Below, piece by piece: positions 1 through 55,465 of a stretch of DNA of 64,000 bases. The notes under the pieces were generated by a model, which was not told the origin of the DNA, made no database searches, and worked only from the letters and a program-made list of their open reading frames with translations. Both the position numbers and the translations under genes were made by a program. This stretch comes from a virus: positions 1 through 64,000 of the IMG/VR virus record IMGVR_UViG_3300037845_000036. The stretch is one strand, 5' to 3'. Positions within the stretch are counted from its first letter, which is position 1. Every line of letters starts with the position of its first letter.

Positions 1-394
1 AGCATCGGGCAACTACGGGGCCGCGACAGCATCGGGCAACTCCGGAGCCGCGACAGCATCGGGCTACTCCGGGGCCGCGACAGCATCGGGCTACTCCGGA
101 GCCGCGACAGCATCGGGCAACTACGGGGCCGCGACAGCATCGGGCTACTCCGGAGCCGCGACAGCATCGGGCGACTCCGGAGCCGCGACAGCATCGGGCT
201 ACTACGGGGCCGCGACAGCATCGGGCTACTCCGGTAAAGTACGTGGTGCCAAGGGCTGCGCGCTGTTCCTAGTGTACCGAGATGCAAAGCGCGTGATCAA
301 ACACGCATGGGCAGGTATCGCAGGCCAAGACGGCATTAAGCCCGAGACGTGGTATAGGCTTGACAAGAACGGTAAGCCGCAGGAGTGCTCTTAA
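1..394 (+). CDS. Phage protein with GAATASG(N/Y/D)(S/Y) repeats (DUF7666-like), 5'-partial
   Basis: Frame 2 is open from the window start: ASGNYGAATASGNSGAATASGYS...KVRGAKGCALFLVYRD...AGIAGQDGIKPETWYRLDKNGKPQECS, TAA at 392-394. Not in the ORF track because there is no start codon. Confidence 0.85.
   Translation, partial: ASGNYGAATASGNSGAATASGYSGAATASGYSGAATASGNYGAATASGYSGAATASGDSGAATASGYYGAATASGYSGKVRGAKGCALFLVYRDAKRVIKHAWAGIAGQDGIKPETWYRLDKNGKPQECS
2..235 (+). repeat. 27-bp coding tandem repeat, ~9 copies
   Basis: Unit gcatcgggc(a/t/g)act(a/c)cgg(g/a)gccgcgaca starts at 2, 29, 56 ... 218. Confidence 0.97.
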
Positions 395-2906: not shown

Positions 2907-3353
2907 TCATGGTATATCCTTCCGTTTCCGTCGCCCGATTGGCGCGCTCGCGGGCCAATCTCCGGGATTACTGAAACCACGCACGATCCGTTCGGTACTT
3001 GGTTTGCTAAAGCGCAGCGGAGCATTCCACGATAGTAATATCTCGTGGACCTGTTCTAACGAACGGGCAATCCCTGTGTGATGCCCGAATGAGCCTGCCA
3101 TATCGCCGAATATCTCTTGGTCGGATGTGAGAACTCCTCGCAAAGATTTCATCTCGATCCATCCGACAAACCGATCGGGGGCGAGAAATAAAAAGTCCCA
3201 AATCCCGCGCTTGACACCCATCCCGTGCAGGATCTTGCCCCGCAGTTCGCCGCCGCCGCCGTGTCCGATGGCGCTGAAGTACCAAGGTGGGCACAATCCC
3301 CAACGCAGCCAATCGGCAACCGTTCGCTGCAGTATTTGTTCGGGATGCCGCAT
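2907..3353 (-). CDS. VRR-NUC domain nuclease
   Basis: E..LQ..V..WL...GVKRGIWD...WIEMKS..G.LT.DQ..F. Confidence 0.85.
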   Translation of the reverse strand: MRHPEQILQRTVADWLRWGLCPPWYFSAIGHGGGGELRGKILHGMGVKRGIWDFLFLAPDRFVGWIEMKSLRGVLTSDQEIFGDMAGSFGHHTGIARSLEQVHEILLSWNAPLRFSKPSTERIVRGFSNPGDWPASAPIGRRKRKDIP

Positions 3354-3880: not shown

Positions 3881-4225
3881 TTATTTGCCTTTCCCGAACC
3901 GCTCGCGCATCTCGCGGTACGCAATACTAGCGCTTTTAGTCTTCCAAAAGGTCGCGAACTTTGGGGCCTGTAGCTCCGTCATCATGAACTGCAGTTGATC
4001 GGACCAGGCGGGACAAAGTGCTGCGTTAGTGAAACGTATCAAAGCACGGCGCCGAGGCCCGAGCCACTGTAAGAGATATGCCGAGCCATTTGGGCCGCGC
4101 GTTACACATGGTTCAAATCGACTTTCCAAATAAATGTTACGGAGGACGGCATCACGTTGCGGAGGTGCAAAGCCGTGGAGTGTAAGCCAGCCAGATACGA
4201 CTAGACATAGTGCGACGCATGGCAT
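3881..4225 (-). CDS. Small phage tail-type lysozyme-like protein with hydrophobic N-terminus
   Basis: [14 protein letters not shown]...[13 protein letters not shown]...[10 protein letters not shown]. Confidence 0.65.
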
Positions 4226-4255: not shown

Positions 4256-4690
4256 TTAGTCTGGGTTGACGCAACCCGGATGCGGGCGGCAAATCGGCTG
4301 CCCACCCTTGTCAATGTCACTCTGCCGCTCGCCAGCGTAGAGCGCAGTAAGCACATCGTGACAGTATTGGGAGGATTCGACGCAGACCTTTAGCGAGCCG
4401 CCGTCCTTAGTGGGTACAACCAATTCCCAATCGTTATCGCCGGTTCCAGCCGCCGCCGTGGCTAATACTACAAACAGAGCGAGCGCGGGCGCTAGAAACT
4501 TTTTACCTAGCGCGGCCATGCGCCGCGACGGTGTACGCATTTGGAATTTTGGTGGCTTCGAAGAACGTGACGATCGCAAGCAAATGATTTCATTACAAAC
4601 GAAAGTATTTGGCCCTACTAGCCTTCCCTGTCCAACAGCAAGATTGCGCCCACAAGAACCACAAACGCACGGTTCTTGGTTCGCGTTCAT
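4256..4690 (-). CDS. Hypothetical protein (true start uncertain; internal signal/TM segment)
   Basis: ORF abuts the recombinase stop; hydrophobic stretch followed by a Cys-containing domain. Confidence 0.55.
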   Translation of the reverse strand: MNANQEPCVCGSCGRNLAVGQGRLVGPNTFVCNEIICLRSSRSSKPPKFQMRTPSRRMAALGKKFLAPALALFVVLATAAAGTGDNDWELVVPTKDGGSLKVCVESSQYCHDVLTALYAGERQSDIDKGGQPICRPHPGCVNPD

Positions 4691-5559
4691 AGTCCCAATG
4701 TTCTAAGCGCCGGATTTTCTACCGCGCGTTGTGCTTCCACGTATCCGAGAGCTATCGAGACGGTTTTATGTCGGCTAAGAAGCATCACCTCTTCAATTTT
4801 GGCACCGTTGCGAAACATCGTCGTTATGCCGCCTCGGCGGAAACTGTGCGCCCCGATTTTAGTCGGATTGAATCCAATATGAGCCGCCCAGCGTTTGGCG
4901 ATTGTAGCAACCCTCCGCGCAGGCATGCGCGCATCGCCAGAGCGGAAGATCGGCCCGGCGGTGATGTCAGCATGCGACAGCCAGCGCTCTAAAGCCGCGA
5001 TAGGGCAATAGATTGTCGGGCTGCGCAGAATTGGGACCAACTCGCCCTTGCCGCTCTTATCAGTCTTGGAGCGCCGAACGTTAATTGTCATGCTGGCGTC
5101 GTCAATAACCAGGTCATCGCGGTTGAGCGCAACAATTTCGCTGCGGCGCATCATTGATGCGATGGCGAACAGGATTACGGCGCGATCTTGAAGGTTTTCG
5201 GGCGGAATTGCGTCAATGATCTTTTTAACGTCATCGACCATGAGTGCCGCCTTGGGAGTCTTTGCGGTGCCTTTCTGCCGGCGGATCTCCGCCCAAGTGT
5301 CCCGAATGACTGTTTCGTTGACGCGCAACGGCTTGCCTTTGATCTTGTGAACCGCTACCAGCATGGCTATGCGACCCTGCAGGCTTGAAGTAGATACCGT
5401 TGCCGAGCGGTCGGTGAGATAAGCGGCTACACTCGCGGGTTTAGCGGGGAACTGTTGTGCGGAATTGGTGACACACCAATTACACCAATCGCGCCAAAAG
5501 CTTTCGTAAGCCTGTCGAGTTGCGGGCGACCAGCGCCCTCTATCGAATAATTGCTCCAT
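4687..5559 (-). CDS. Tyrosine recombinase, Cre-like
   Basis: SAM-like N-domain (SPATRQAY...W..WC); catalytic motifs RRSEI, SKTD, HSFRRG, LSRH, GY all present. Confidence 0.93.
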   Translation of the reverse strand: MEQLFDRGRWSPATRQAYESFWRDWCNWCVTNSAQQFPAKPASVAAYLTDRSATVSTSSLQGRIAMLVAVHKIKGKPLRVNETVIRDTWAEIRRQKGTAKTPKAALMVDDVKKIIDAIPPENLQDRAVILFAIASMMRRSEIVALNRDDLVIDDASMTINVRRSKTDKSGKGELVPILRSPTIYCPIAALERWLSHADITAGPIFRSGDARMPARRVATIAKRWAAHIGFNPTKIGAHSFRRGGITTMFRNGAKIEEVMLLSRHKTVSIALGYVEAQRAVENPALRTLGL

Positions 5560-5565
5560 AACCCA

Positions 5566-5595
5566 AGGATATCAAAAGCGATATCGTGGCGTCAA
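5566..5595 (-). promoter_or_regulatory. Putative near-leaderless promoter of the recombinase, containing GATATC-N6-GATATC
   Basis: Minus strand TTGACG(5595-5590)-18 nt-TATCCT(5571-5566), 6 nt before ATG; GATATC at 5568-5573 and 5580-5585. Confidence 0.55.
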
Positions 5596-5599
5596 GATA

Positions 5600-6400
5600 T
5601 TAATAGGATTTAATGGCCGCAATCCGTTCGCCGATCCACCGCATGACGGGAACCGCCATGCTGTTGCCAAGCGCTCGGCAGCGTGGTCCATCGGCGGCGG
5701 GTTTGCCACGGTACCTAATCAGTGTGTAATCGTCAGGAAACCCTTGTAGGCGCTCGCACTCACGCGGCGTAAGGCGTCTAACCGCCGTGTTGGCCATAAT
5801 GGCAGTAGTGGTACTTGCCTCGCTTTGGCCCGGCGCCCGTGCCCGCAGTGGTGTATGGCAATTTGTTTCTTTGGCCCCGATAGTCGCCATCGCCCCAGTA
5901 ATGTCATAGGCAATAAGGTTGCCGCATTCACTCCCGGCTGGACCGCCGCTGTACTTTTCCCATTTGCTGACAACACAAGGGAGTTGTCTTTTATCCGGCA
6001 TGCGTTGATTTGCGCTACTCGCTGTCCAAGCGGGAAAGATTATATTTTCGGTTGTGTCTGCGTCGTTGCGGTATCCGCTACCTCCTGTAGAGCCTCCCGC
6101 AATTGGGCGGGCAACTCTTTCTCCCGCGTTTTGGCGCGGCGGAGAATCCCCGCGCAGGCTCTCGCGCTGACGCGGATGATTTGCCCCAATGAACCGGGTG
6201 ATACGGTGCGCATCTAAGTAGTTTTGACAATTGTGGCACTGACAGGGCTGACCCACGGCCCACGTATCGGTACCGCATAAATTTTTAGTAACCAGACAGC
6301 GCCGTTTCGCATCGGTAATTCGTTTGACCATTTTCACGTAGCGGCCAATGTTCCGCCGATACCTCTCCACTAGAGCGGGTCCATCATAATCTTCTTTCAT
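5600..6400 (-). CDS. Chimeric ORF ending in the C-terminal part of a C5-cytosine methyltransferase
   Basis: VRRLTPRECERLQGFPDDYT...ALGNSMAVPVMRWIG (motifs IX/X); no FxGxG or ENV motif upstream. Confidence 0.75.
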   Translation of the reverse strand: MKEDYDGPALVERYRRNIGRYVKMVKRITDAKRRCLVTKNLCGTDTWAVGQPCQCHNCQNYLDAHRITRFIGANHPRQRESLRGDSPPRQNAGERVARPIAGGSTGGSGYRNDADTTENIIFPAWTASSANQRMPDKRQLPCVVSKWEKYSGGPAGSECGNLIAYDITGAMATIGAKETNCHTPLRARAPGQSEASTTTAIMANTAVRRLTPRECERLQGFPDDYTLIRYRGKPAADGPRCRALGNSMAVPVMRWIGERIAAIKSY

Positions 6401-6423
6401 TTTTGTTTTCCCCTATTTTTCCT

Positions 6424-6654
6424 TTAAGTGCAATTAACGGAATCAAAAAAGAAGGCGTCTGGACCACAAAATTGACGAGGCGCATCCCGCATTATTGTTG
6501 GTTCAAGACATTCTCGGTTTCGTTCACAGAGCATCAATGAAAATCTGGTCTCACCCGTTATGTAGTCGGGGAAAGATACTTTAGCACTTGGATGAGTGCA
6601 CATATGCATGTTGTGCCACTCATTATGATGTTTGCAATCCTTACAAGCCCTCAT
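6424..6654 (-). CDS. Cys-rich hypothetical protein
   Basis: CKDCKH...CTHP...CERNR...CGPDA; bounded by junction sites. Confidence 0.8.
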   Translation of the reverse strand: MRACKDCKHHNEWHNMHMCTHPSAKVSFPDYITGETRFSLMLCERNRECLEPTIMRDAPRQFCGPDAFFFDSVNCT

Positions 6655-6682
6655 TTTCTAATTTCTCCGTCGTTAAGGGCGC

Positions 6683-6883
6683 TTAACGGTTATTGTTATA
6701 CCCATCGCCACTTTCAAATTCTCTTACTGCTTGTTCAAAGGCTTCGCCCATGCGAGTGAAGTCATTATGCGCAAAAGCCTCGGCGGCAATTTCACGCATT
6801 CGCCGGACCACCCACATTCCCTTGGGCGTAATCCGCATCGCCTGATCGTCGTCGTCATCCCGCGCCAATTCGTCGTCGCTCAT
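6683..6883 (-). CDS. Hypothetical protein
   Basis: RBS AGGGGG; bounded by junction sites. Confidence 0.75.
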   Translation of the reverse strand: MSDDELARDDDDDQAMRITPKGMWVVRRMREIAAEAFAHNDFTRMGEAFEQAVREFESGDGYNNNR

Positions 6884-6908
6884 AATTCCCCCTGTCCCTT
6901 AAAAGCGA

Positions 6909-7196
6909 TTAACGGTGTTGCGCGGCTTCTTGTTTGGCATTCATCGGTCGCGCGGGTGGGATACGCTTGTGAGCCGACTTAACCGGCGTGACGGTCAATA
7001 AATCGGGCGGTTTCCCACGCGCCGATAAATTGTTGTAGCAATGCACGGCGGTATGATCGGTCGTGCCATAGCGTTTGATGTGGCGCAGCAATGGCGCAAC
7101 CTTGTTGATTCCGCGCTGGCCTCGATTCTTATACGCCTCGCACCACTTCTTATTGCGACCGATTTTGCGACCTTTTTGAGATTTAGCGGCGGGCAT
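6909..7196 (-). CDS. Basic hypothetical protein
   Basis: RBS AAGGAGAG within/after the site; RKIGRNKKWC. Confidence 0.8.
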   Translation of the reverse strand: MPAAKSQKGRKIGRNKKWCEAYKNRGQRGINKVAPLLRHIKRYGTTDHTAVHCYNNLSARGKPPDLLTVTPVKSAHKRIPPARPMNAKQEAAQHR

Positions 7197-7208
7197 AAAG
7201 TCTCTCCT

Positions 7209-7559
7209 TTAACAAGCGTTAACGGTTGCCGCCGCTTTCAAGAACCATTCTTCGATTTCGTCGAAAGATTCCCGAGAGTTGTTATGCGCCGGAACCGCAA
7301 AAAAATGGACACTAGCCGCGTCTGCTAGACGGGCAACCGCTGCCCGCGCTTTATTCATGTCATAGTCTAAGGGGATAGATGCGACGAATTTCCCACCGAG
7401 TGCCTTGACGAGCGCTCCATTTGCGCAAACTCGTCCCTCTCCGTCGATGAGCCTCCCCCGGCACCAGCCATCACGACGCAGGATATCAAGTGCGTCCAAA
7501 ATAATTTTGGTTGTTTCGTCCAACCCCGTTCCGTCGAGTGGCATGGTCTTCCTCTCCAT
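7209..7559 (-). CDS. DUF6197-like protein (paralog of 22699-23052)
   Basis: ILDALDILRRDGWCRG...GRVCANGAL...HNN; true start probably MPLDGT (7544). Confidence 0.8.
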   Translation of the reverse strand: MERKTMPLDGTGLDETTKIILDALDILRRDGWCRGRLIDGEGRVCANGALVKALGGKFVASIPLDYDMNKARAAVARLADAASVHFFAVPAHNNSRESFDEIEEWFLKAAATVNAC

Positions 7560-7768
7560 TAAGAAACATTAACGGCGCGAAGCGTTTCACCCCATCCACC
7601 GCGATCAGCCGCCAACCCAAGCTCTATTAGATATCGAATAGCCGCCGCTCGGGTAGGGGTTGCGGGTTGGCGTAGTCGCCACTCGTCCACGCGAGCTAGG
7701 CGCTCAGCCGAAATCCGCATATCGAAACGCTCGTCTTGCATGGACGGACTATGCCGTACTTTTTTCAT
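7559..7768 (-). CDS. Ribbon-helix-helix (Arc/CopG-like) regulator
   Basis: RFDMRISAE.LARVDEWR..Q...PTRAAAIRYLIELGL. Confidence 0.85.
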   Translation of the reverse strand: MKKVRHSPSMQDERFDMRISAERLARVDEWRLRQPATPTRAAAIRYLIELGLAADRGGWGETLRAVNVS

Positions 7769-12159: not shown

Positions 12160-13083
12160 TCAACGAGGCTGTCGATACGTCAACCTCTTGCCGATGCCGC
12201 CCTTCACGATAGCGGCGGCACGCTCCGTATCGTTCAAATCGCGACGGTTCCAACGAAATGAAAATTCGTCGCAATAACGGTCAAGGTGCTCCTTGCTAAT
12301 ATGGTGAAACGAGCCAACAACCCCACGTTTCAGCAAAGCAAAGTAGCTTTCAACGGTGTTTGTGTTAACATCGTCTCTCGCATATTCGGAAGCCGAGTGC
12401 AGCACGACTTCGTGACCACCCTCAAACTCCTTGCCGATGCCGATATACGAGCGCCATTCATCGGTCACGATGCGCGACTTCCGATCCACGTTCTCGCGGA
12501 TAGCGCCTTTCAGCGTCGCGGCGTCCACATGCTCGATCTTGCGGCTGCGCACGCGGCCCGAACGCTCGACCAGCGCGACGACTGGCGTTTTCTTCGTGCC
12601 GCGCCCGCTCTTGCCCTTCGTGTTAGTGCCCGGCCGGGGTTTGCCGCCGATATAGGTTTCGTCAACCTCAACCGTCTTGCCCGACCCGCCAAGCGCCGGC
12701 TCCGGCGCACCCTCGCGCATCGCTTCCCTGATGCGGTGCCACAAAAACCAAGCGGTTTTGTAGGTAACGCCGATCGTCCGATGCAGTTGATGCGCCGACA
12801 TGCCTTTCTTGCTGCCAGCCATTAGCCGATAGGCCAGAACCCACTTGTTAAGCGGCAAATGGCTGCTTTCCATGACCGAGCCTGTCGTCACGGTGAACGA
12901 GCCTTGGCAGCTATTGCAGTGAATGAGACCCGGCCGGTGCGATGCGCCGTTGAGCCGATAGACCCGCGCGGTTTCGCCGCAGTGCGGGCAATACGGTTTC
13001 CCGTCCGGCCAGCGGAGCGACTCAAGGTGCTCCCTAGCCTTTGTTTCGTCAGTGAAAATCGGGTCTGTGAGGTTGATCGCCAT
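12160..13083 (-). CDS. IS1595-family DDE transposase
   Basis: RWPDG..CPHCG Zn ribbon, VEVDETYIGG, TDEW..Y, V.HS..EY, NTVESYF...Y.DEF.FR.N.R. Confidence 0.97.
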   Translation of the reverse strand: MAINLTDPIFTDETKAREHLESLRWPDGKPYCPHCGETARVYRLNGASHRPGLIHCNSCQGSFTVTTGSVMESSHLPLNKWVLAYRLMAGSKKGMSAHQLHRTIGVTYKTAWFLWHRIREAMREGAPEPALGGSGKTVEVDETYIGGKPRPGTNTKGKSGRGTKKTPVVALVERSGRVRSRKIEHVDAATLKGAIRENVDRKSRIVTDEWRSYIGIGKEFEGGHEVVLHSASEYARDDVNTNTVESYFALLKRGVVGSFHHISKEHLDRYCDEFSFRWNRRDLNDTERAAAIVKGGIGKRLTYRQPR

Positions 13084-20136: not shown

Positions 20137-20595
20137 TTAAGGAGATTTAACGGCTACTTTTGCGGCAAGCCAATCACGGAAGGCTCGGCGCGCGAGGGTG
20201 GCGCAGCCGCCGGTCTCAGCTACATGTTCCAAGGCCGGCGGGGATGCGCCAAGTCGTATGCCAGCAACATCGGAAGACAACTCGCCAGTAGATCCTTCCA
20301 GCAAAGCCGTCACCAAACGTGCCCTAGTGGTGGGACACAAAAGGTCTCTAACGATACGTTTGGCGAGCGAATTAGTCAACGTAACAGCTTTGTTCGGACG
20401 CCGTTTATACCAATCGACGCCATCAAGGATTGATGGATGCTCCTTAATGAATCCGCGAATTTGCCCTTCTACGATCGGCTGAATGACTTTCTCAAGCGGG
20501 TCCATTCCCGGCGCGGGTAAGTCTCGCTTCGGCGCCAATTCTCGCAGCGCAGAGATTTGTTCTGGCGTCAGCAGTGAGGCGAGTGGGGTTGCCAT
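20137..20595 (-). CDS. Hypothetical protein
   Basis: 152 aa, ending in a site (AVKSP*). Confidence 0.7.
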   Translation of the reverse strand: MATPLASLLTPEQISALRELAPKRDLPAPGMDPLEKVIQPIVEGQIRGFIKEHPSILDGVDWYKRRPNKAVTLTNSLAKRIVRDLLCPTTRARLVTALLEGSTGELSSDVAGIRLGASPPALEHVAETGGCATLARRAFRDWLAAKVAVKSP

Positions 20596-21029: not shown

Positions 21030-21380
21030 TTATTCTTCCTTAAAAGTATGACGGCCAGTACCGTCAGGTTGGATATTCCACTCCCGCCGTCGATTAATGA
21101 CCATCTTCCGGTCTATTTCTTCGTGTAGATCCACACCATTTAGCATCGCCCAGCAATATAGGAGGATGACGATATCGGCCGCCTCAACTGCAGCTAAGCG
21201 ATCATCGGGCGCATCAAAAAATTCGCGAATTTCCTCTCTTAGATGCCCCGTTACGCCAGCCGAAGTGGCGGTGGGGAAGTGATCGCGCTGCCAACTATTA
21301 ATAGTGGCTTGAGTTTCGCGAGGGGGCATTCGGATCGGACCGTGTGAGAAGTCCCATTCGTCGCATTTGTCCATAACCAT
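21030..21380 (-). CDS. MazG-like dNTP pyrophosphohydrolase (DUF550-type)
   Basis: W....FP.......HLREEIRE...EAADIVILL...KM.IN.RR.W. Confidence 0.8.
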   Translation of the reverse strand: MVMDKCDEWDFSHGPIRMPPRETQATINSWQRDHFPTATSAGVTGHLREEIREFFDAPDDRLAAVEAADIVILLYCWAMLNGVDLHEEIDRKMVINRRREWNIQPDGTGRHTFKEE

Positions 21381-22698: not shown

Positions 22699-23052
22699 TT
22701 AAGGGCTGTTAACGGCAGCCATAGATGCTGCCCTCAGAAACCAATCTTCGATTTCGGTAAATGTCATGCGTGAATTATTGAAATCCGGGACGCCCTGACT
22801 ACGCTTGCCGATGGGGCAGTCACAAGCTTCCGCCAACCGATCACGCGCCAATATAAATTTATCAACGGGCCATCCATCGGGGCGAATCCTTGGATCGGTT
22901 CCCGTAACTGCTTTAACCAACGCGCCATTGGCGCACACCCGTCCCTCGCCGTCTGATAATTTGCCGCGACACCAACCTTCACGGCGCAGAATGTCGAGAG
23001 CATCCAAAATGATTTGAGTTGTTTCGTCTAAATTCGTTCCGTCGAGAGGCAT
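22699..23052 (-). CDS. DUF6197-like protein (paralog of 7209-7559)
   Basis: MPLDGTNLDETTQIILDALDILRREGWCRG..., near-identical N-half to the paralog. Confidence 0.85.
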   Translation of the reverse strand: MPLDGTNLDETTQIILDALDILRREGWCRGKLSDGEGRVCANGALVKAVTGTDPRIRPDGWPVDKFILARDRLAEACDCPIGKRSQGVPDFNNSRMTFTEIEDWFLRAASMAAVNSP

Positions 23053-31579: not shown

Positions 31580-32014
31580 CTATCCGCCATTCCCGCTCAA
31601 TTGTCCTGTACTTGGTGGGGGCCAGTAATCTGGGGGATTAGGAGGCATCCAATTCGGCTCGTCCCCTTCAAGAAAGGCAGCGGCGGTGCGCATTCTGCGC
31701 GGGTCATCGCCAAATAATCCCATCCCGACATTACACGCACGACAGACTAAGCCTCGTACCCGACCGTCTGCATGATCGTGGTCCACATCGACCGCCGCTC
31801 GCACACGACATAACGCACACAAACCATTCTGCGCTTCGAAAAGCGCCCGATATTGATCGTGATCAATACCATAGCGATGGCGCAATCGAGTTGCGCGGAA
31901 AGCTTTGGGATCGCGTGCGCGACGCGCTCGCTCCGCTGCGTTAACTTTCTCTCGGTTCAGCCGGTTGTATCGCCGTTTTTGCGCCTTCCGCGCAACCTCA
32001 TCCTTGTAGGGCAT
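31580..32014 (-). CDS. Endonuclease VII-family HNH nuclease
   Basis: YGI...Y..L...QNG.CALC...VDHDH..G.VRGL.C..CN.G.G.F.DD. Confidence 0.92.
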   Translation of the reverse strand: MPYKDEVARKAQKRRYNRLNREKVNAAERARRARDPKAFRATRLRHRYGIDHDQYRALFEAQNGLCALCRVRAAVDVDHDHADGRVRGLVCRACNVGMGLFGDDPRRMRTAAAFLEGDEPNWMPPNPPDYWPPPSTGQLSGNGG

Positions 32015-32015
32015 C

Positions 32016-32273
32016 TTAGCCCCCGCCCCCACCTAGCTGTCCTGTACTCGGTGGATTAAAATGCCACCAAAAATGAACTGCAAGGCCGCCGGCAAGAACA
32101 CCGCAAATCCAGATGATCGGCGGCCAAGCCTCGGAGATATGCCATGTCCACATCGACAGAGTGAGGCCGTTATGGGTCAATGCGATTGTCTCGAATACTG
32201 CAAACGAAATGATCCACGAGGCCAGTATCACTGGCCAGATGTAGACGAGATGAGCAACGATCCAAGCCATCAT
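32016..32273 (-). CDS. Small multi-TM protein (holin-like)
   Basis: Trp-rich TM segments, located in the lysis region. Confidence 0.65.
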   Translation of the reverse strand: MMAWIVAHLVYIWPVILASWIISFAVFETIALTHNGLTLSMWTWHISEAWPPIIWICGVLAGGLAVHFWWHFNPPSTGQLGGGGG

Positions 32274-50040: not shown

Positions 50041-50517
50041 TCAGCGAATCAAGAAAATAGCACCGATCTGTTCTCCACGCCGCGCCCACCAGCGGCGCTT
50101 GGCCTCAAATCGCTTCCGCGATGTTACCGATGTAAAAAATGGGACTTCATGACCGGATTCCAAGGCGAACAATGCCTTGATGTACTGCACCCACGCCATC
50201 AGATCATCGGAGTAGCCTGTACCCTTGCGATATTCCAGTCGGACAAACAGCCAAAGCTCGTGCCAATAGAACTGTTTGGAATACCAAAATTTATTCATCA
50301 CAAGACCGACGCTGGCGGCTATCACGCCATTGGGCGCATCGATCACGCCATGCATGCCGCCGTTTTTCTGCGTTCCCAATCGAATATGGGCGCGTACCTC
50401 ATCTTCGTCATGCGCAAAACCTAACGAATTATCGCGCTCCAATCCCAACAAAAGATCGTAAAGCGCATCTTCATCAGCCTCGCCAGCAATGCGGACGTTG
50501 GCCGGCCTCTCGATCAT
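50041..50517 (-). CDS. GNAT-fold protein
   Basis: VR.A...D...ELWLFVR.EYRKG. Confidence 0.7.
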   Translation of the reverse strand: MIERPANVRIAGEADEDALYDLLLGLERDNSLGFAHDEDEVRAHIRLGTQKNGGMHGVIDAPNGVIAASVGLVMNKFWYSKQFYWHELWLFVRLEYRKGTGYSDDLMAWVQYIKALFALESGHEVPFFTSVTSRKRFEAKRRWWARRGEQIGAIFLIR

Positions 50518-51020
50518 GAAACTGCGGGCAGATGACGGAAAATAGCCCCTGCTGTCTTGAAATGGCGACTTACCAGCCTCGCCTTTGGCGCATCAATCTG
50601 TGGCGTCCATTCCTCTAGTAAAATTGGACGGCCGATCTCATCGGCAAATTGGCGGGCCGCGATCAAAAGACTACGTGCATGTCCTGTTAACCGCGCTTCC
50701 GGCAGCACGACGTTCCATACCGAGCGCAGATAGTGTGAACGCGACAGCATCGGGCGCTCTATCTTGATACCAAGACTCGCCTCAATACCGCTGTCTCCCC
50801 GAATGATTAGCGCAATCCCGCCGACACGGTGCGTGAAATCCTTCACCAGCGCGGCGATCAAATCCTCTTCAGCCCGCCCCTCATCTACCTCGTCCTTTAC
50901 CTCAAACAGAAACCGCAGCAGGTCGTCATAATCATTAATCGCCGCGAACCCCACGGGTGACAACGGGCGCGGTGGCTTGGTGGCGGGGCCTTTTCTGAGA
51001 AACCCGTGTTTACTACTCAT
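50514..51020 (-). CDS. GNAT-fold protein
   Basis: A...D.D.L...VLPEAR..GHARSLL..A..FA. Confidence 0.65.
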   Translation of the reverse strand: MSSKHGFLRKGPATKPPRPLSPVGFAAINDYDDLLRFLFEVKDEVDEGRAEEDLIAALVKDFTHRVGGIALIIRGDSGIEASLGIKIERPMLSRSHYLRSVWNVVLPEARLTGHARSLLIAARQFADEIGRPILLEEWTPQIDAPKARLVSRHFKTAGAIFRHLPAVS

Positions 51021-51832: not shown

Positions 51833-52494
51833 TCATCATCACTAACAAATATCTTAGACCCATTTACAAATTCTATGACACGTCCAGATAAACGGAATTC
51901 ACACGGAATTGTCCGTGTTACAGAACCTTCGGTATAGTACGCATCTTTATTGGGATCGCCACTTCCTTCCCTTTTCTTGAAAAGCGGCACTCCGATAGAA
52001 TCAATAAATACGGGGTTATCCATTTAGCGCCTCCCGCAACACGTCTGCATATTCCCGACTAATCACGCAGCGCTTTTGCACAACCATCGCGGCTGCCATT
52101 TCGGCCTCGGCATCAGCCTTTATCGCTGCATCACTCGCGATAGCTGAGCGCAAGTTCTCAACGGAACCATGGCGAATAATAAGATCGAGGCGCGGACCCG
52201 CCATCAACTCGTCCCCTTCGCCTCAACTGAAAGCCTGTCATCAATCGGAATCGCCGAACCAAACAGCGGGTGCTTAGCACACCAGTCCTTTTCGCCCACG
52301 GGTGCCCAGATCGATTGAATACGCACTGTCTGTCCCGTTATTGGGGCCGGCGGCGTTTGTACTAGGAAAGGGGTTGGTGGTCGCCCATGACAATACCCCA
52401 ATTTCGGGGTTTCCATGACGCAACAAGGGCAAGAAAAACACGAGATTCCGATCTCAGACATACAGACACTCCGAAGTGTGTACCAAGTTCTATA

Positions 52495-53253
52495 TCACGC
52501 GATAGCCCCAATCACAATCCTAGCCCACCCCGTTAGCGATTGAGTGAATGACGTAACAGCAGAAATATTGAACGCATAGACATTCCCGACAAGACTTGAC
52601 CCCGGAGGCCATGCCAACAGTTGCGTTACCACGCTCCCATTGATAGCGACAGCACTGCTACTGTAGGCTGTTGGCGACGCCGTGACCACGGCATCGGTCC
52701 CACTCAATATCGCTAAGAAGATCTCCGCCGAAATGATATTCTCTCCCGGTGCCAGTCCCGGCGCAAAATCAAAGCCGTAATTTAGTGATTCCCCCTGATT
52801 TGCAACTGGCAAATCCTGTCCAACATAGCCGCCTTCTAAAATTGGCAGCGTGTAAAACAATGGCGATGCGGGCAGCACAACGCTTTGTGCTCCGCTTGGT
52901 ACTACTCCACCCGTGTACGCGGTAACACCAAATCCAGGCGCGATACCAAACCGCGCCCATGGCATCATTAGCTGAGCGGCGCTTGTCGTTACTGAAAACG
53001 ACAACGCATAATCGTTGCCAATCAGGAAATTCGCGGGGTCATTAAACGATGTCAGTTGCGATACGACGGTACCTGAAAATTGCGGGGTTACAGAGAGATG
53101 AGAACCAGGGAAATTATCAGTTCCAGAAAGCGTCCGCAGCCGAGACGTTACGGCTTGAATGGTTTCGCTCACTCCCAATAACTGCGCCAGATCAAAACCT
53201 AATATCCGTGCGGCTTGATCTTGGAATGGCGGGAAATCGCGACCAACGTACAT
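52495..53253 (-). CDS. Tandem-domain tail adaptor-like protein
   Basis: YVG.D.P...GFD.A..L...E.I...W occurs twice. Confidence 0.7.
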   Translation of the reverse strand: MYVGRDFPPFQDQAARILGFDLAQLLGVSETIQAVTSRLRTLSGTDNFPGSHLSVTPQFSGTVVSQLTSFNDPANFLIGNDYALSFSVTTSAAQLMMPWARFGIAPGFGVTAYTGGVVPSGAQSVVLPASPLFYTLPILEGGYVGQDLPVANQGESLNYGFDFAPGLAPGENIISAEIFLAILSGTDAVVTASPTAYSSSAVAINGSVVTQLLAWPPGSSLVGNVYAFNISAVTSFTQSLTGWARIVIGAIA

Positions 53254-53497: not shown

Positions 53498-55465
53498 TCA
53501 GCCGCCTTTGCCATCTGCCTGTGCTACATATTCAATACGACCAAGCCGCCATTGGCTCCCAAGATCGGTACTCTGAAACTCGAATTGCAAACCGCGCCCT
53601 CGCCCCCGACACGGGATTGAACGCGTGCGCGCATTTATCGGATATGGCCCTTTGATACGCGGTGCTTCTTGCGGGTTCCGATAGACATAGACCGACATCA
53701 GAACAGTTCCCGGTCCCGGCACTGGCCCGTTGCTGAATTTTACGTCAGGTCTGATCTGACTAAAAAACGCAAACTCATCACCCTCGGCTATAGCCACGAT
53801 CCCCGATAATAGGTTCGCCTTTAGCGGTACGGTATCCGCATCGTTCCCCGTTTCCTCCTGATACACCACACCAAGCGGAGTAGACCCCATCGGAGGACCA
53901 AATACATTCTGATCGATGGCCGCTGAGCGAATGCCGGGATCGCCCGATTGAAGAACGGTGTAGTCCCAAAGACCAGTATCAAGTTGCAATTTCGCCTTAG
54001 TAACCGCCCCACCCATCTGAGGGACATACCACACTACCTCGTTAAAATAGGCATTAGAAACGCAGTTCGTGTTTTGGATATTCGATGAGTCAACGTTTCT
54101 GAACACCTGATCCCAAATAGAGCATGGCAATATAGTCGGGACACCCCCAGCAGAGAAAACATAGAACTGTTCTTTGCTCATCCAAACGACGGTGCTCCCA
54201 ATGACGGCAAAAGCATGCGGCCCGATCAACCCACAATTCACAGCAATTGGCTGAAACCCCCAAATGTACGGGAGACCTTCATATTGCATGATGTAAAGGC
54301 AAATATCAGTCCAAATTACGCACCCACTGGCAACAGCGGCCCCTCCGACAATTTTATTGCCAAGCTGCAATCTAAAACTGCCCGCTTGGTTTGTCACCGT
54401 TGGCGTGAAATCCGTATAATCGCCGGCATCCGACCATCGTAAAAGTAGCGGATCAAAAAGTCCCGTCGCTGAGTTTACGGAGCCACCAACGATCAGGATT
54501 TGCTGCTGAGATGCCACAAAACCGATGTTATTTGCTAAAGGCGCGGTGGGAACTGCTGCTGCAGGCGTATTTACGCCAGTACTCGGCTGCCAAATATAAA
54601 TCGGATATCCGGCGGGGATAATGACGAGAAATTCACCCCAATTGTCTAATGATATGGATTGCGCCTCAAGACTGCTTTGCGCGCCCCCGCTAGTAGGGTC
54701 CATAAAGATGATGTTTATATTCCCACTGTTCTGAAATACGTTTTGCGTTGATATTGCTGCCGCACCCGCATTTATTGTATATACGTTACTGCTGACAACG
54801 CTCTCTACGGCGTAATTATCCTCTAGCCGCAATCCTCCCACCGTTATGGGATCAGTTATTTGTACCGTCTGCCCCGTGAAAAATCCGTGGTTGGGCAGCG
54901 TGATCGTTACTATTTCGCTCCCAACTTGAGTCGCAAACTGCTGTACCGCACCGCCGCCCGTTACCGATATAGACGCCTTCTGCGCCGTCGTTATGCTGTA
55001 ATTACCAAAACTCGTGGCGACAACAGAATATGAGCCATAAAGTACAATCCCGCCGACTGAAACTGGCTCGCGGATACGGAGCCATTGTCCCACGCTTGGC
55101 GTGTTGATGGGATCATTGATAACAACAATCGCGCTTCCCGCAACCGTATTCAGATTGACTGAAACCAGCGCTGAGATGGTTAGGGGCGTGATGTCATAAA
55201 CGTTATCTGAACTAAATAGCGATATCTTATGGCGCCCACCGATCGCGAGATAACAAATTTGTGATAGAGCCGCCCACGCCCGCAGCGCCGTCACACGTAT
55301 CCCCGACCCAGCAACAGCCTGCGTAAAATAACGAAAACCACCCGCCTTCTGCATCAACCCCTGGAAACAACGCATATTACCCGATTGCGTCCAGCCGCCA
55401 GAATTCAGCGCGGGCGTCTGTTCAGCATTTATACCTGGGGTTAGGGTGATTGGGACTGTGGGCAT
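53498..55465 (-). CDS. Tail nozzle/stabilisation protein
   Basis: DNWGE.L, DPLL.RWSD..D...TNQAG..RL, WTD...Y.MQY, FNEV.W, WRLG. Confidence 0.85.
   Translation of the reverse strand: MPTVPITLTPGINAEQTPALNSGGWTQSGNMRCFQGLMQKAGGFRYFTQAVAGSGIRVTALRAWAALSQICYLAIGGRHKISLFSSDNVYDITPLTISALVSVNLNTVAGSAIVVINDPINTPSVGQWLRIREPVSVGGIVLYGSYSVVATSFGNYSITTAQKASISVTGGGAVQQFATQVGSEIVTITLPNHGFFTGQTVQITDPITVGGLRLEDNYAVESVVSSNVYTINAGAAAISTQNVFQNSGNINIIFMDPTSGGAQSSLEAQSISLDNWGEFLVIIPAGYPIYIWQPSTGVNTPAAAVPTAPLANNIGFVASQQQILIVGGSVNSATGLFDPLLLRWSDAGDYTDFTPTVTNQAGSFRLQLGNKIVGGAAVASGCVIWTDICLYIMQYEGLPYIWGFQPIAVNCGLIGPHAFAVIGSTVVWMSKEQFYVFSAGGVPTILPCSIWDQVFRNVDSSNIQNTNCVSNAYFNEVVWYVPQMGGAVTKAKLQLDTGLWDYTVLQSGDPGIRSAAIDQNVFGPPMGSTPLGVVYQEETGNDADTVPLKANLLSGIVAIAEGDEFAFFSQIRPDVKFSNGPVPGPGTVLMSVYVYRNPQEAPRIKGPYPINARTRSIPCRGRGRGLQFEFQSTDLGSQWRLGRIEYVAQADGKGG

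Follow-up and report, generated by a model that had tools for sequence, protein, structure and literature searches.

A Cre-like tyrosine recombinase as candidate enzyme for gene exchange at the junction palindromes of a soil phage

Introduction

Does a Cre-like tyrosine recombinase encoded by a phage act on the short palindromes that mark the gene junctions next to it? The question is raised by a locus at positions 4256–7768 of a 64 kb stretch of DNA, called here the window, which is the first part of the single-contig virus record IMGVR_UViG_3300037845_000036 (97,058 bp; G000). The source of this palindrome-bearing record is a soil phage, and the window encodes a portal protein, a large terminase and a primase/helicase. 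We find the recombinase to be the best candidate enzyme for gene exchange at the junction palindromes, a role that is still unproven. Its proposed function, that of cognate enzyme of 'addressed' joints comparable to Xer/pdif sites, is held tentatively, as quite possible but short of probable; binding, cleavage and exchange are all steps that we infer.

Sequence and placement of the junction palindromes

The motif is a strict 20 bp palindrome, CCN-WTAA-N6-TTAW-NGG, with about 34 copies in the 97 kb genome. Within the window, TTAA-N6-TTAA is observed 31 times against an expectation of 0.63. Genome-wide, 34 pairs of TTAA stand at a distance of 10 nt, and any other spacing up to 30 nt yields zero to two pairs (one for N5, none for N7). 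The information content is confined to CC, TTAA, TTAA and GG, with 14 specified bases conserved per palindrome; there is next to none in the central six bases or in the flanks.

Nearly all copies fall in a stretch of about 45 kb (88–97 kb and 0–37 kb of the contig) where the genes are small and for the most part unannotated; the copies form arrays at several loci and on both strands. The structural block has zero copies. The six-site array described in the original prediction is present, but its sites are merely six of the roughly 34 in the genome, and one of them, site 5600, is degenerate (CCA...TAT).

The placement of the copies is tight. At nearly every one, the TAA stop codon of the upstream gene is part of the first or second TTAA, or else translation ends immediately 5' of the motif, and the next start codon follows 0–23 nt 3' of it. 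Of the 27 copies that can be oriented, 21 have G at position 3 of the coding strand and 17 have A at position 18, which gives a downstream arm of TTAAAGG(A), the beginning of a Shine–Dalgarno sequence. Copies are also carried by the ends of terminal genes that no start codon follows, for example at 20137 and 31331.

The mean minimum free energy of folding of the sites is −4.2 kcal/mol, compared with −3.1 kcal/mol for shuffled sequences. No covariation links N3 with N18, and in the relatives described below the W of one arm changes without the W of the other, which yields hybrids of the form TTAA...TTAT. Because the hairpins are weak and the half-sites vary independently, the pattern is consistent with recognition of duplex DNA by a symmetric dimer, and binding of this kind is predicted. 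Two other functions were considered for the motif and rejected. As a promoter of the next gene it has no conserved −35-like element upstream and no room for a −10 element and a start before the Shine–Dalgarno sequence and ATG; as a hairpin, whether in RNA or in attC-like single-stranded DNA, it has a folding energy near that of the shuffles and no covariation of pairable positions.

The accessory genes bounded by sites include an endonuclease VII (31580–32032, minus strand; 1.7e-21) and a MazG-like dATP/dGTP pyrophosphohydrolase (21030–21380, minus strand).

The recombinase

The open reading frame (ORF) of 290 amino acids (aa) at 4687–5559, on the minus strand, matches the Pfam family Phage_integrase (PF00589) at 3.5e-16 and a PHROG integrase at 9e-24. 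Among proteins of known structure in the PDB its top sequence match is Cre (4e-12). The R/K/H/R/Y residues of the protein stand opposite R173/K201/H289/R292/Y324 of Cre, with a histidine at the position of Cre W315, and R139, K165, H238, R241, H264 and Y273 are unvaried across an alignment of 22 homologues; the catalytic motifs are intact, as had been claimed. An AlphaFold2 model of the protein has a mean predicted local distance difference test score (pLDDT) of 87.3. When this model was searched with Foldseek, the top 30 matches were Cre and its engineered variant Tre, aligned over about 300–320 columns with a best E-value of 1.3e-13 and about 22% identity to Cre; IntI (rank 34), XerA, XerH and lambda Int come after Cre in the list. 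The modelled fold comprises two domains, one helical and core-binding, the other catalytic; an additional arm-binding domain is absent. Judged by its sequence, the ORF encodes an intact Cre-like tyrosine recombinase of the simple type, of predicted activity.

Homologues of the recombinase are found mainly in metagenomes (about 28, at 44–62% identity). The closest match among 185,579 bacterial and archaeal species, each represented by one genome, is just 33% identical. Megablast and tblastn searches of the GenBank phages revealed no near relative of the phage, the top recombinase match there being 31%, and scans of viral contigs with the window recombinase alone, and later with the homologues P0011 and P0007, returned nothing.

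Co-occurrence of recombinase and palindrome

Two complete IMG/VR genomes encode members of the same recombinase clade: G001 (65,299 bp; recombinase 56% identical to that of G000) and G002 (59,383 bp; 50% identical). Both also bear the palindrome at gene junctions. There are 21 copies in G002, mostly of the TTAA form, and 13 in G001, mostly of the form ATAA...TTAT with some hybrids; copies at the N5 and N7 spacings number 0–1 in these genomes. A genome-wide check of G000, G001 and G002 found only one tyrosine recombinase in each and zero serine recombinases. Any two of the three genomes have only about 8–10 proteins in common, and in blastp and phmmer comparisons the sole protein robustly common to all three is the recombinase (50–56% identity). 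Only a weak ribbon–helix–helix (RHH)-like similarity, with E-values of 0.002–0.008, offers a second candidate.

A fourth genome, G005 (63,850 bp, 83% complete), has neither a recombinase of the clade nor a single WTAA-N6-TTAW. It nevertheless has in common with G000 and G001 six syntenic genes that adjoin the recombinase there, at 42–62% identity: those for a zinc-ribbon protein, a 148-aa protein, an HNH endonuclease, a 345-aa protein, a 234-aa protein and the primase. Among 75 primase-related loci, the recombinase or the motif was seen in G001 alone. The motif is absent near more distant homologues of the recombinase (≤36% identity). An IMG/VR-wide scan with the 16-base variant CCGTTAA-N6-TTAAAGGAG matched 25 contigs, of which G002 alone has an N6-specific enrichment, and a scan of the same database with the 14-base motif gave single chance matches only, among the matches listed. 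The motif is at background level in 301 genomes sampled from the class of G007, which is labelled as an Alphaproteobacteria metagenome-assembled genome; as an argument against a host regulon this is weak.

Co-occurrence had been put forward as a check on the link between enzyme and site. Recombinase clade and motif occur together in all three of the genomes that could be scored for both, and no genome is discordant; within reach of the searches made, we found neither members of the clade without the motif nor motif-rich relatives without the recombinase. The recombinase, as the sole site-specific recombinase of its genome and one that co-occurs with the motif, keeps the place of best candidate enzyme given to it by the original prediction; the assignment is unproven, and the alternative of an integrase unrelated to the sites is weighed below.

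Two further features of G001 and G002 deserve mention. The two genomes encode an 86–94-aa protein (G001 50467–50727; G002 52422–52706) that is 80% identical between them, their other shared proteins being about 50% identical, and that has no counterpart in G000. This small gene was considered as evidence on exchange boundaries and set aside, the similarity being confined to the coding sequence and uninformative on boundaries. The 'direct terminal repeats' of the two genomes are exact, motif-free overlaps of 127 bp and are read as k-mer overlaps that the assembler left in circular contigs, not as true terminal repeats. On these grounds the idea of a Cre-like cyclisation by way of a terminal-repeat site was dropped.

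The recombinase promoter

A consensus promoter scan identified a sigma-70-like promoter, TTGACG-18-TATCCT with a TG extension, at 5566–5595 on the minus strand (read from 5595 to 5566). The order on that strand, 5' of the ATG, is CCATTAAATCCTATTAA-TATC-TTGACG-CCACGATATCGCTTTTGA-TATCCT-TGGGTT-ATG. Between the −35 hexamer and the TTAA of site 5600 lie 4 bp, in agreement with the earlier description of this promoter. Because the recombinase ATG lies 6 nt past the −10 hexamer and has no Shine–Dalgarno sequence, the mRNA is probably leaderless; the start codon is backed by homologues that align from the same methionine. In all three motif-bearing genomes a −35-like hexamer lies 0–1 bp from a motif copy 5' of the recombinase, and promoter-like elements follow in G002 (a strong TTGACA-18-TAGAAT) and, in weaker form, in G001 (TTGCGG-17-GACAAT).

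The GATATC-N6-GATATC reported within the promoter was also found. It occupies 5569–5586, in the promoter spacer and −10 region, and consists of GATATC (5569–5574), AAAAGC and GATATC (5581–5586). The hexamer occurs 40 times in the whole genome; a pair at N6 spacing is therefore unusual, and it could be an operator or a core-type site. On the contig L123, positions 3942–3990, upstream of a 33%-identical recombinase homologue, GATACTGAATATC and four tandem copies of GATATCC recall this pair.

In G002 the promoter and the recombinase gene are about 100 nt apart, and this interval holds GCGGGTTCGAGCCCCGTCGC (genome positions 55316–55348; L164 15316–15348). Twenty nucleotides of this segment are the same as in the tRNA-Asp T-arm of 13 genomes, all of them published, out of 151 sampled from the class of G007; an acceptor-like end and CCA come next. 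Neither ARAGORN nor Rfam calls a tRNA here. The resemblance to the 3' half of a tRNA suggests that the segment may be an attP site or a tRNA-like RNA.

The array at 4256–7768 and other features

All the genes of this locus are on the minus strand, and transcription runs from an RHH-like gene through the five units and site 5600 to the promoter and gene of the recombinase. The recombinase was thought to head the array; it lies downstream on the same strand, and the array comes first in transcription order. The five single-gene units, on the other hand, are as described: six copies of TTAA-N6-TTAA, with first T at 5600, 6424, 6673, 6899, 7209 and 7559, bound five ORFs.

The first gene of this leftward operon (7559–7768) encodes a 69-aa protein of RHH-like appearance, for which there are weak phmmer matches (E 0.002–0.008) to small proteins of G001 and G002. 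The Pfam family RHH_1 matches the G001 protein only (1.6e-5) and not the 69-aa protein of G000, and the DNA-facing strand residues differ among the three (R,D,R,S; T,N,R,P; Q,A,R,T). From its sequence, the 69-aa protein is a rival candidate for motif binding. Its gene is followed by the palindrome CCG TTAA TGTTTC TTAA TGG (7556–7575; like the other five, on the minus strand and found by motif scan) and by unit 5 (7209–7559), a DUF6197 protein (PF19698, 1.7e-13). A DUF6197 paralogue, 59% identical and likewise bounded by sites, is encoded at 22699–23052. The palindrome CCG TTAA CGCTTG TTAA AGG (7206–7225) separates unit 5 from unit 4 (6909–7196), a basic ORF of 95 aa, which is followed by CCG TTAA TCGCTT TTAA GGG (6896–6915), the 66-aa ORF of unit 3 (6683–6883), CCG TTAA GCGCCC TTAA CGA (6670–6689) and the 76-aa ORF of unit 2 (6424–6654). 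No Pfam family could be assigned to units 2, 3 and 4. Beyond CCG TTAA TTGCAC TTAA AGG (6421–6440) lies unit 1 (5600–6400), of 266 aa, which matches the C-terminal part of C5 cytosine methyltransferases (PF00145, 1.1e-10). The similarity is limited to the C-terminal motifs (residues 193–260), and the N-terminal part is unlike the family. The last site, the degenerate CCA TTAA ATCCTA TTAA TAT (5597–5616), contains the stop codon of this 266-aa gene and abuts the recombinase promoter.

Just 3' of the recombinase lies the gene for a zinc-ribbon/membrane protein of 144 aa (4256–4690, minus strand), and further downstream one for a 148-aa protein (2907–3353, minus strand). Both genes are kept in G001, in G005 and in the short metagenomic contigs L121 and L122, so that the module occurs both with and without the recombinase; in L122 its distal gene resembles, by eye, a VRR-NUC nuclease.

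Elsewhere in the genome, 27 bp tandem repeats coding for a repetitive protein are found at both contig ends (window 1–130; genome 96900–97058). The contig break of G000 probably falls within one repetitive gene, the genome being circular or circularly permuted. The phage also contains an IS1595-family transposase (12160–13083, minus strand; DDE_Tnp_IS1595, 1.1e-38, with a zinc ribbon). A protein on a metagenomic contig of 92,463 bp shares 93% identity with it, which hints at a close relative, and proteins named from Pseudolabrys and Stellaceae share about 60%, which hints at an alphaproteobacterial host.

Proposed role of the recombinase

In the interpretation that we favour, the palindromes would be minimal core sites of the Xer/Cre type, in which two inverted arms of 7 bp (CCNWTAA) surround a centre of 6 bp, and the phage's single Cre-like recombinase would be the cognate protein, two monomers occupying each site. 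The geometry is that of a core site, inverted arms round a centre of 6–8 bp, here with a strict N6. The two arms are alike and two-fold symmetric and so suit a single homomeric recombinase; the host XerC/XerD pair uses unlike arms. The ATAA-N6-TTAT form of G001 matches the inner core of the Escherichia coli dif site, whose 28 bp string includes GCATAA-TGTATA-TTATG (PMC3025954).

The centres may determine which sites can pair. Exchange by Cre, Flp and lambda Int usually requires identical overlap regions. Given this rule and the private 6 bp centres, a copy would exchange only with the copy at the corresponding junction of a second genome. The recombinase might thus carry out complete exchange between the same junction on sister genomes or on related co-infecting genomes, and the result would be an ordered, in-register swapping of gene modules at gene boundaries, possibly together with the resolution of multimers. 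Free integron-style shuffling within one genome would not be expected. The TAA stops in two frames of the arms and the AGG(A) start of the Shine–Dalgarno sequence on the downstream arm would keep recombinant junctions translatable. Occupancy of the copy just upstream of the recombinase −35 hexamer could feed back on expression of the enzyme.

Several observations weigh against this proposal. All 34 of the centres in G000 differ, so that no two sites of that genome have the matching centre that the usual homology rule needs, and no centres are common to G000, G001 and G002 beyond chance, as one would expect of genomes so far apart. No rearrangement at the sites is seen in the sequences compared. 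The conserved arms are just 7 bp long, as against 11–13 bp for Xer and Cre. If the tRNA-Asp T-arm-like segment before the G002 recombinase were an attP site, its core would differ from the motif. The tight placement at stop codons and Shine–Dalgarno sequences would equally suit a regulatory site. The co-occurrence signal, finally, comes from only three genomes, and because the motif-bearing region contains the recombinase gene, linkage adds to this signal.

Alternative explanations

Some of these observations are what one would expect if the recombinase were an ordinary integrase or dimer resolvase with a separate site of its own and the palindromes were bound by another factor, a substantial possibility that we nevertheless consider doubtful on balance. 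The sites would then be operators or roadblocks comparable to stoperators, silencing or timing the accessory arrays, with an RHH-type phage protein or a host factor as candidate binders. The tRNA-like segment of G002 would form the classic arrangement of attP next to int; the separate GATATC pair in the G000 promoter, and the fourfold GATATCC upstream of the 33%-identical homologue, could likewise belong to such a site. This explanation would also account for the different centre of every site and for the co-orientation of the sites with transcription in short intergenic spaces, as in L5-type stoperators (PMC9283540), and each of the three genomes does encode a small RHH-like protein. These candidates, however, match one another only at the marginal E-values given above and have unlike DNA-facing residues, and no regulator is detectably conserved across G000, G001 and G002. 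A host factor is not favoured by the background level of the motif in the 301 genomes of the class of G007, nor an ordinary integrase by the bacterial and archaeal species searched, among which the clade was not seen as a prophage integrase (best match 33%). The backbone related to that of G000 in G005 lacks recombinase and motif alike. One particular host factor, a CtrA-like response regulator, would fit a possibly alphaproteobacterial host, as suggested by the transposase similarity to Pseudolabrys and Stellaceae proteins, and the half-site TTAA is that of CtrA. The CtrA consensus is TTAA-N7-TTAA, with occasional N6-spaced sites (PMC4287350, PMC11264516), whereas here there are 34 copies at N6 and none at N7. 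Neither the CC/GG flanks nor the ATAA/TTAT form of G001 is CtrA-like, and the sites lie at stop/Shine–Dalgarno junctions rather than at −35 positions, which makes binding by CtrA extremely unlikely.

The original prediction proposed an integron-like layout of integrase and array. In its strict form, with the recombinase freely excising and inserting each unit as a mobile cassette between any two sites, this is very unlikely, although the units are promoterless single ORFs each bounded by sites, one array adjoins the recombinase, and DUF6197 paralogues form site-bounded units at distant loci in both orientations. Such paralogues are expected anyway in regions where nearly every junction has a site. 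The recombinase is downstream of and co-directional with the array, the loci are on both strands, the 20 bp sites with their weak hairpins are not of the folded attC type, no two centres match, and the closest structure is Cre, not IntI. We attach equally little probability to a function of the motif in RNA, as an element of translational coupling, an operator or a processing site between cistrons. The overlap with the upstream stop codon, the run of the downstream arm into AGGAG 0–23 nt before the next start and the A at N18 of 17 of the 27 coding-strand sites would all fit such a function. The two-fold symmetry, with its CC/GG flanks, has no obvious use in a single-stranded RNA, though, the hairpins are barely stabler than shuffles and their pairable positions do not covary, and the copies at 20137 and 31331 stand at terminal-gene ends with no start to act upon.

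Comparison with known systems

The systems closest in logic to the phage sites are the pdif/dif modules, integrons, the PeSL cassettes and the stoperators. In the pdif modules of Acinetobacter plasmids, the sites are served by the host XerC/XerD (PMC6449649, PMC13141974). As in the phage, many short core-type sites with a 6 bp centre lie in an accessory region and bound small gene modules. The pdif modules are shuffled among replicons, whereas movement of the phage units is only proposed. The pdif sites are 28 bp long with unlike XerC and XerD arms; those of the phage have like arms of 7 bp, are fused to stop codons and Shine–Dalgarno signals, and have as candidate enzyme the phage's own single Cre-like recombinase.

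The Cre/loxP system of phage P1 resembles the present one in having a single phage recombinase, with the same catalytic residues save for a histidine in place of Trp315, and a site of palindromic arms with an asymmetric centre, a form to which the phage site may be likened. Cre is longer (343 versus 290 aa; about 22% identity), and loxP is one site of 34 bp (13+8+13), whereas there are about 34 sites of 7+6+7 here, with differing centres.

Integrons, with IntI, attI and attC, have been reported in phages too (PMC9892861). They share with the present arrays the promoterless single ORFs between recombination-type sites and the tyrosine recombinase nearby. The attC sites are imperfect palindromes of 57–141 bp that are recombined as folded single strands, which does not hold for the 20 bp sites. 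The integron integrase is divergent from its array, next to attI and the promoter Pc; in the phage it is co-directional and not IntI-like, there is no attI or Pc, and several arrays are found on both strands.

The stoperators of cluster A mycobacteriophages (L5, Bxb1) are present in more than 20 copies, in short intergenic spaces and oriented with transcription (PMC9283540), and in these respects the phage sites are similar. A monomeric immunity repressor binds the stoperators, which are asymmetric 13-mers, unlike the two-fold symmetric 20-mers described here, and blastp and phmmer found no conserved repressor or regulator common to the three motif-bearing genomes. The PeSL cassettes of T4-type phages, which consist of a promoter and a terminator stem-loop, mark modular shuffling and recombine by homology (Arbiol et al. 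2010, PMC2839356); the start-associated sequences of cluster K mycobacteriophages include a ribosome-binding site (PMC3203893). Like the palindromes, both are repeated short elements between small accessory genes. Unlike PeSLs, the palindromes have no promoter or stable stem-loop, and only their 14 specified bases are conserved. The system differs from all of these in its phage setting combined with short like arms, fusion to translation signals and co-occurrence with the phage's own Cre-like enzyme.

Implications

Phage genomes are mosaic, and the cause of joints at gene boundaries is a long-standing question. The usual explanations invoke illegitimate or short-homology recombination followed by selection. 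The system described here might offer another route, in which a Cre-like recombinase serves dozens of built-in 20 bp crossover sites at gene boundaries, each with a private address, and mosaicism is driven by the enzyme; taken as a whole, this scheme is rather unlikely, though we think it worth stating. If it is true, related phages would exchange accessory genes in register, and every recombinant junction would keep its stop codon and ribosome-binding site. A self-encoded recombinase with dozens of junction sites would then be a mechanism of directed mosaicism, the phage counterpart of integrons and pdif modules. If the private centres direct pairing, a multi-address recombination toolkit may become possible. 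The locus provides a concrete candidate enzyme–site pair, one small enzyme and a 20 bp site, and it is just these that three otherwise unrelated phages have in common.

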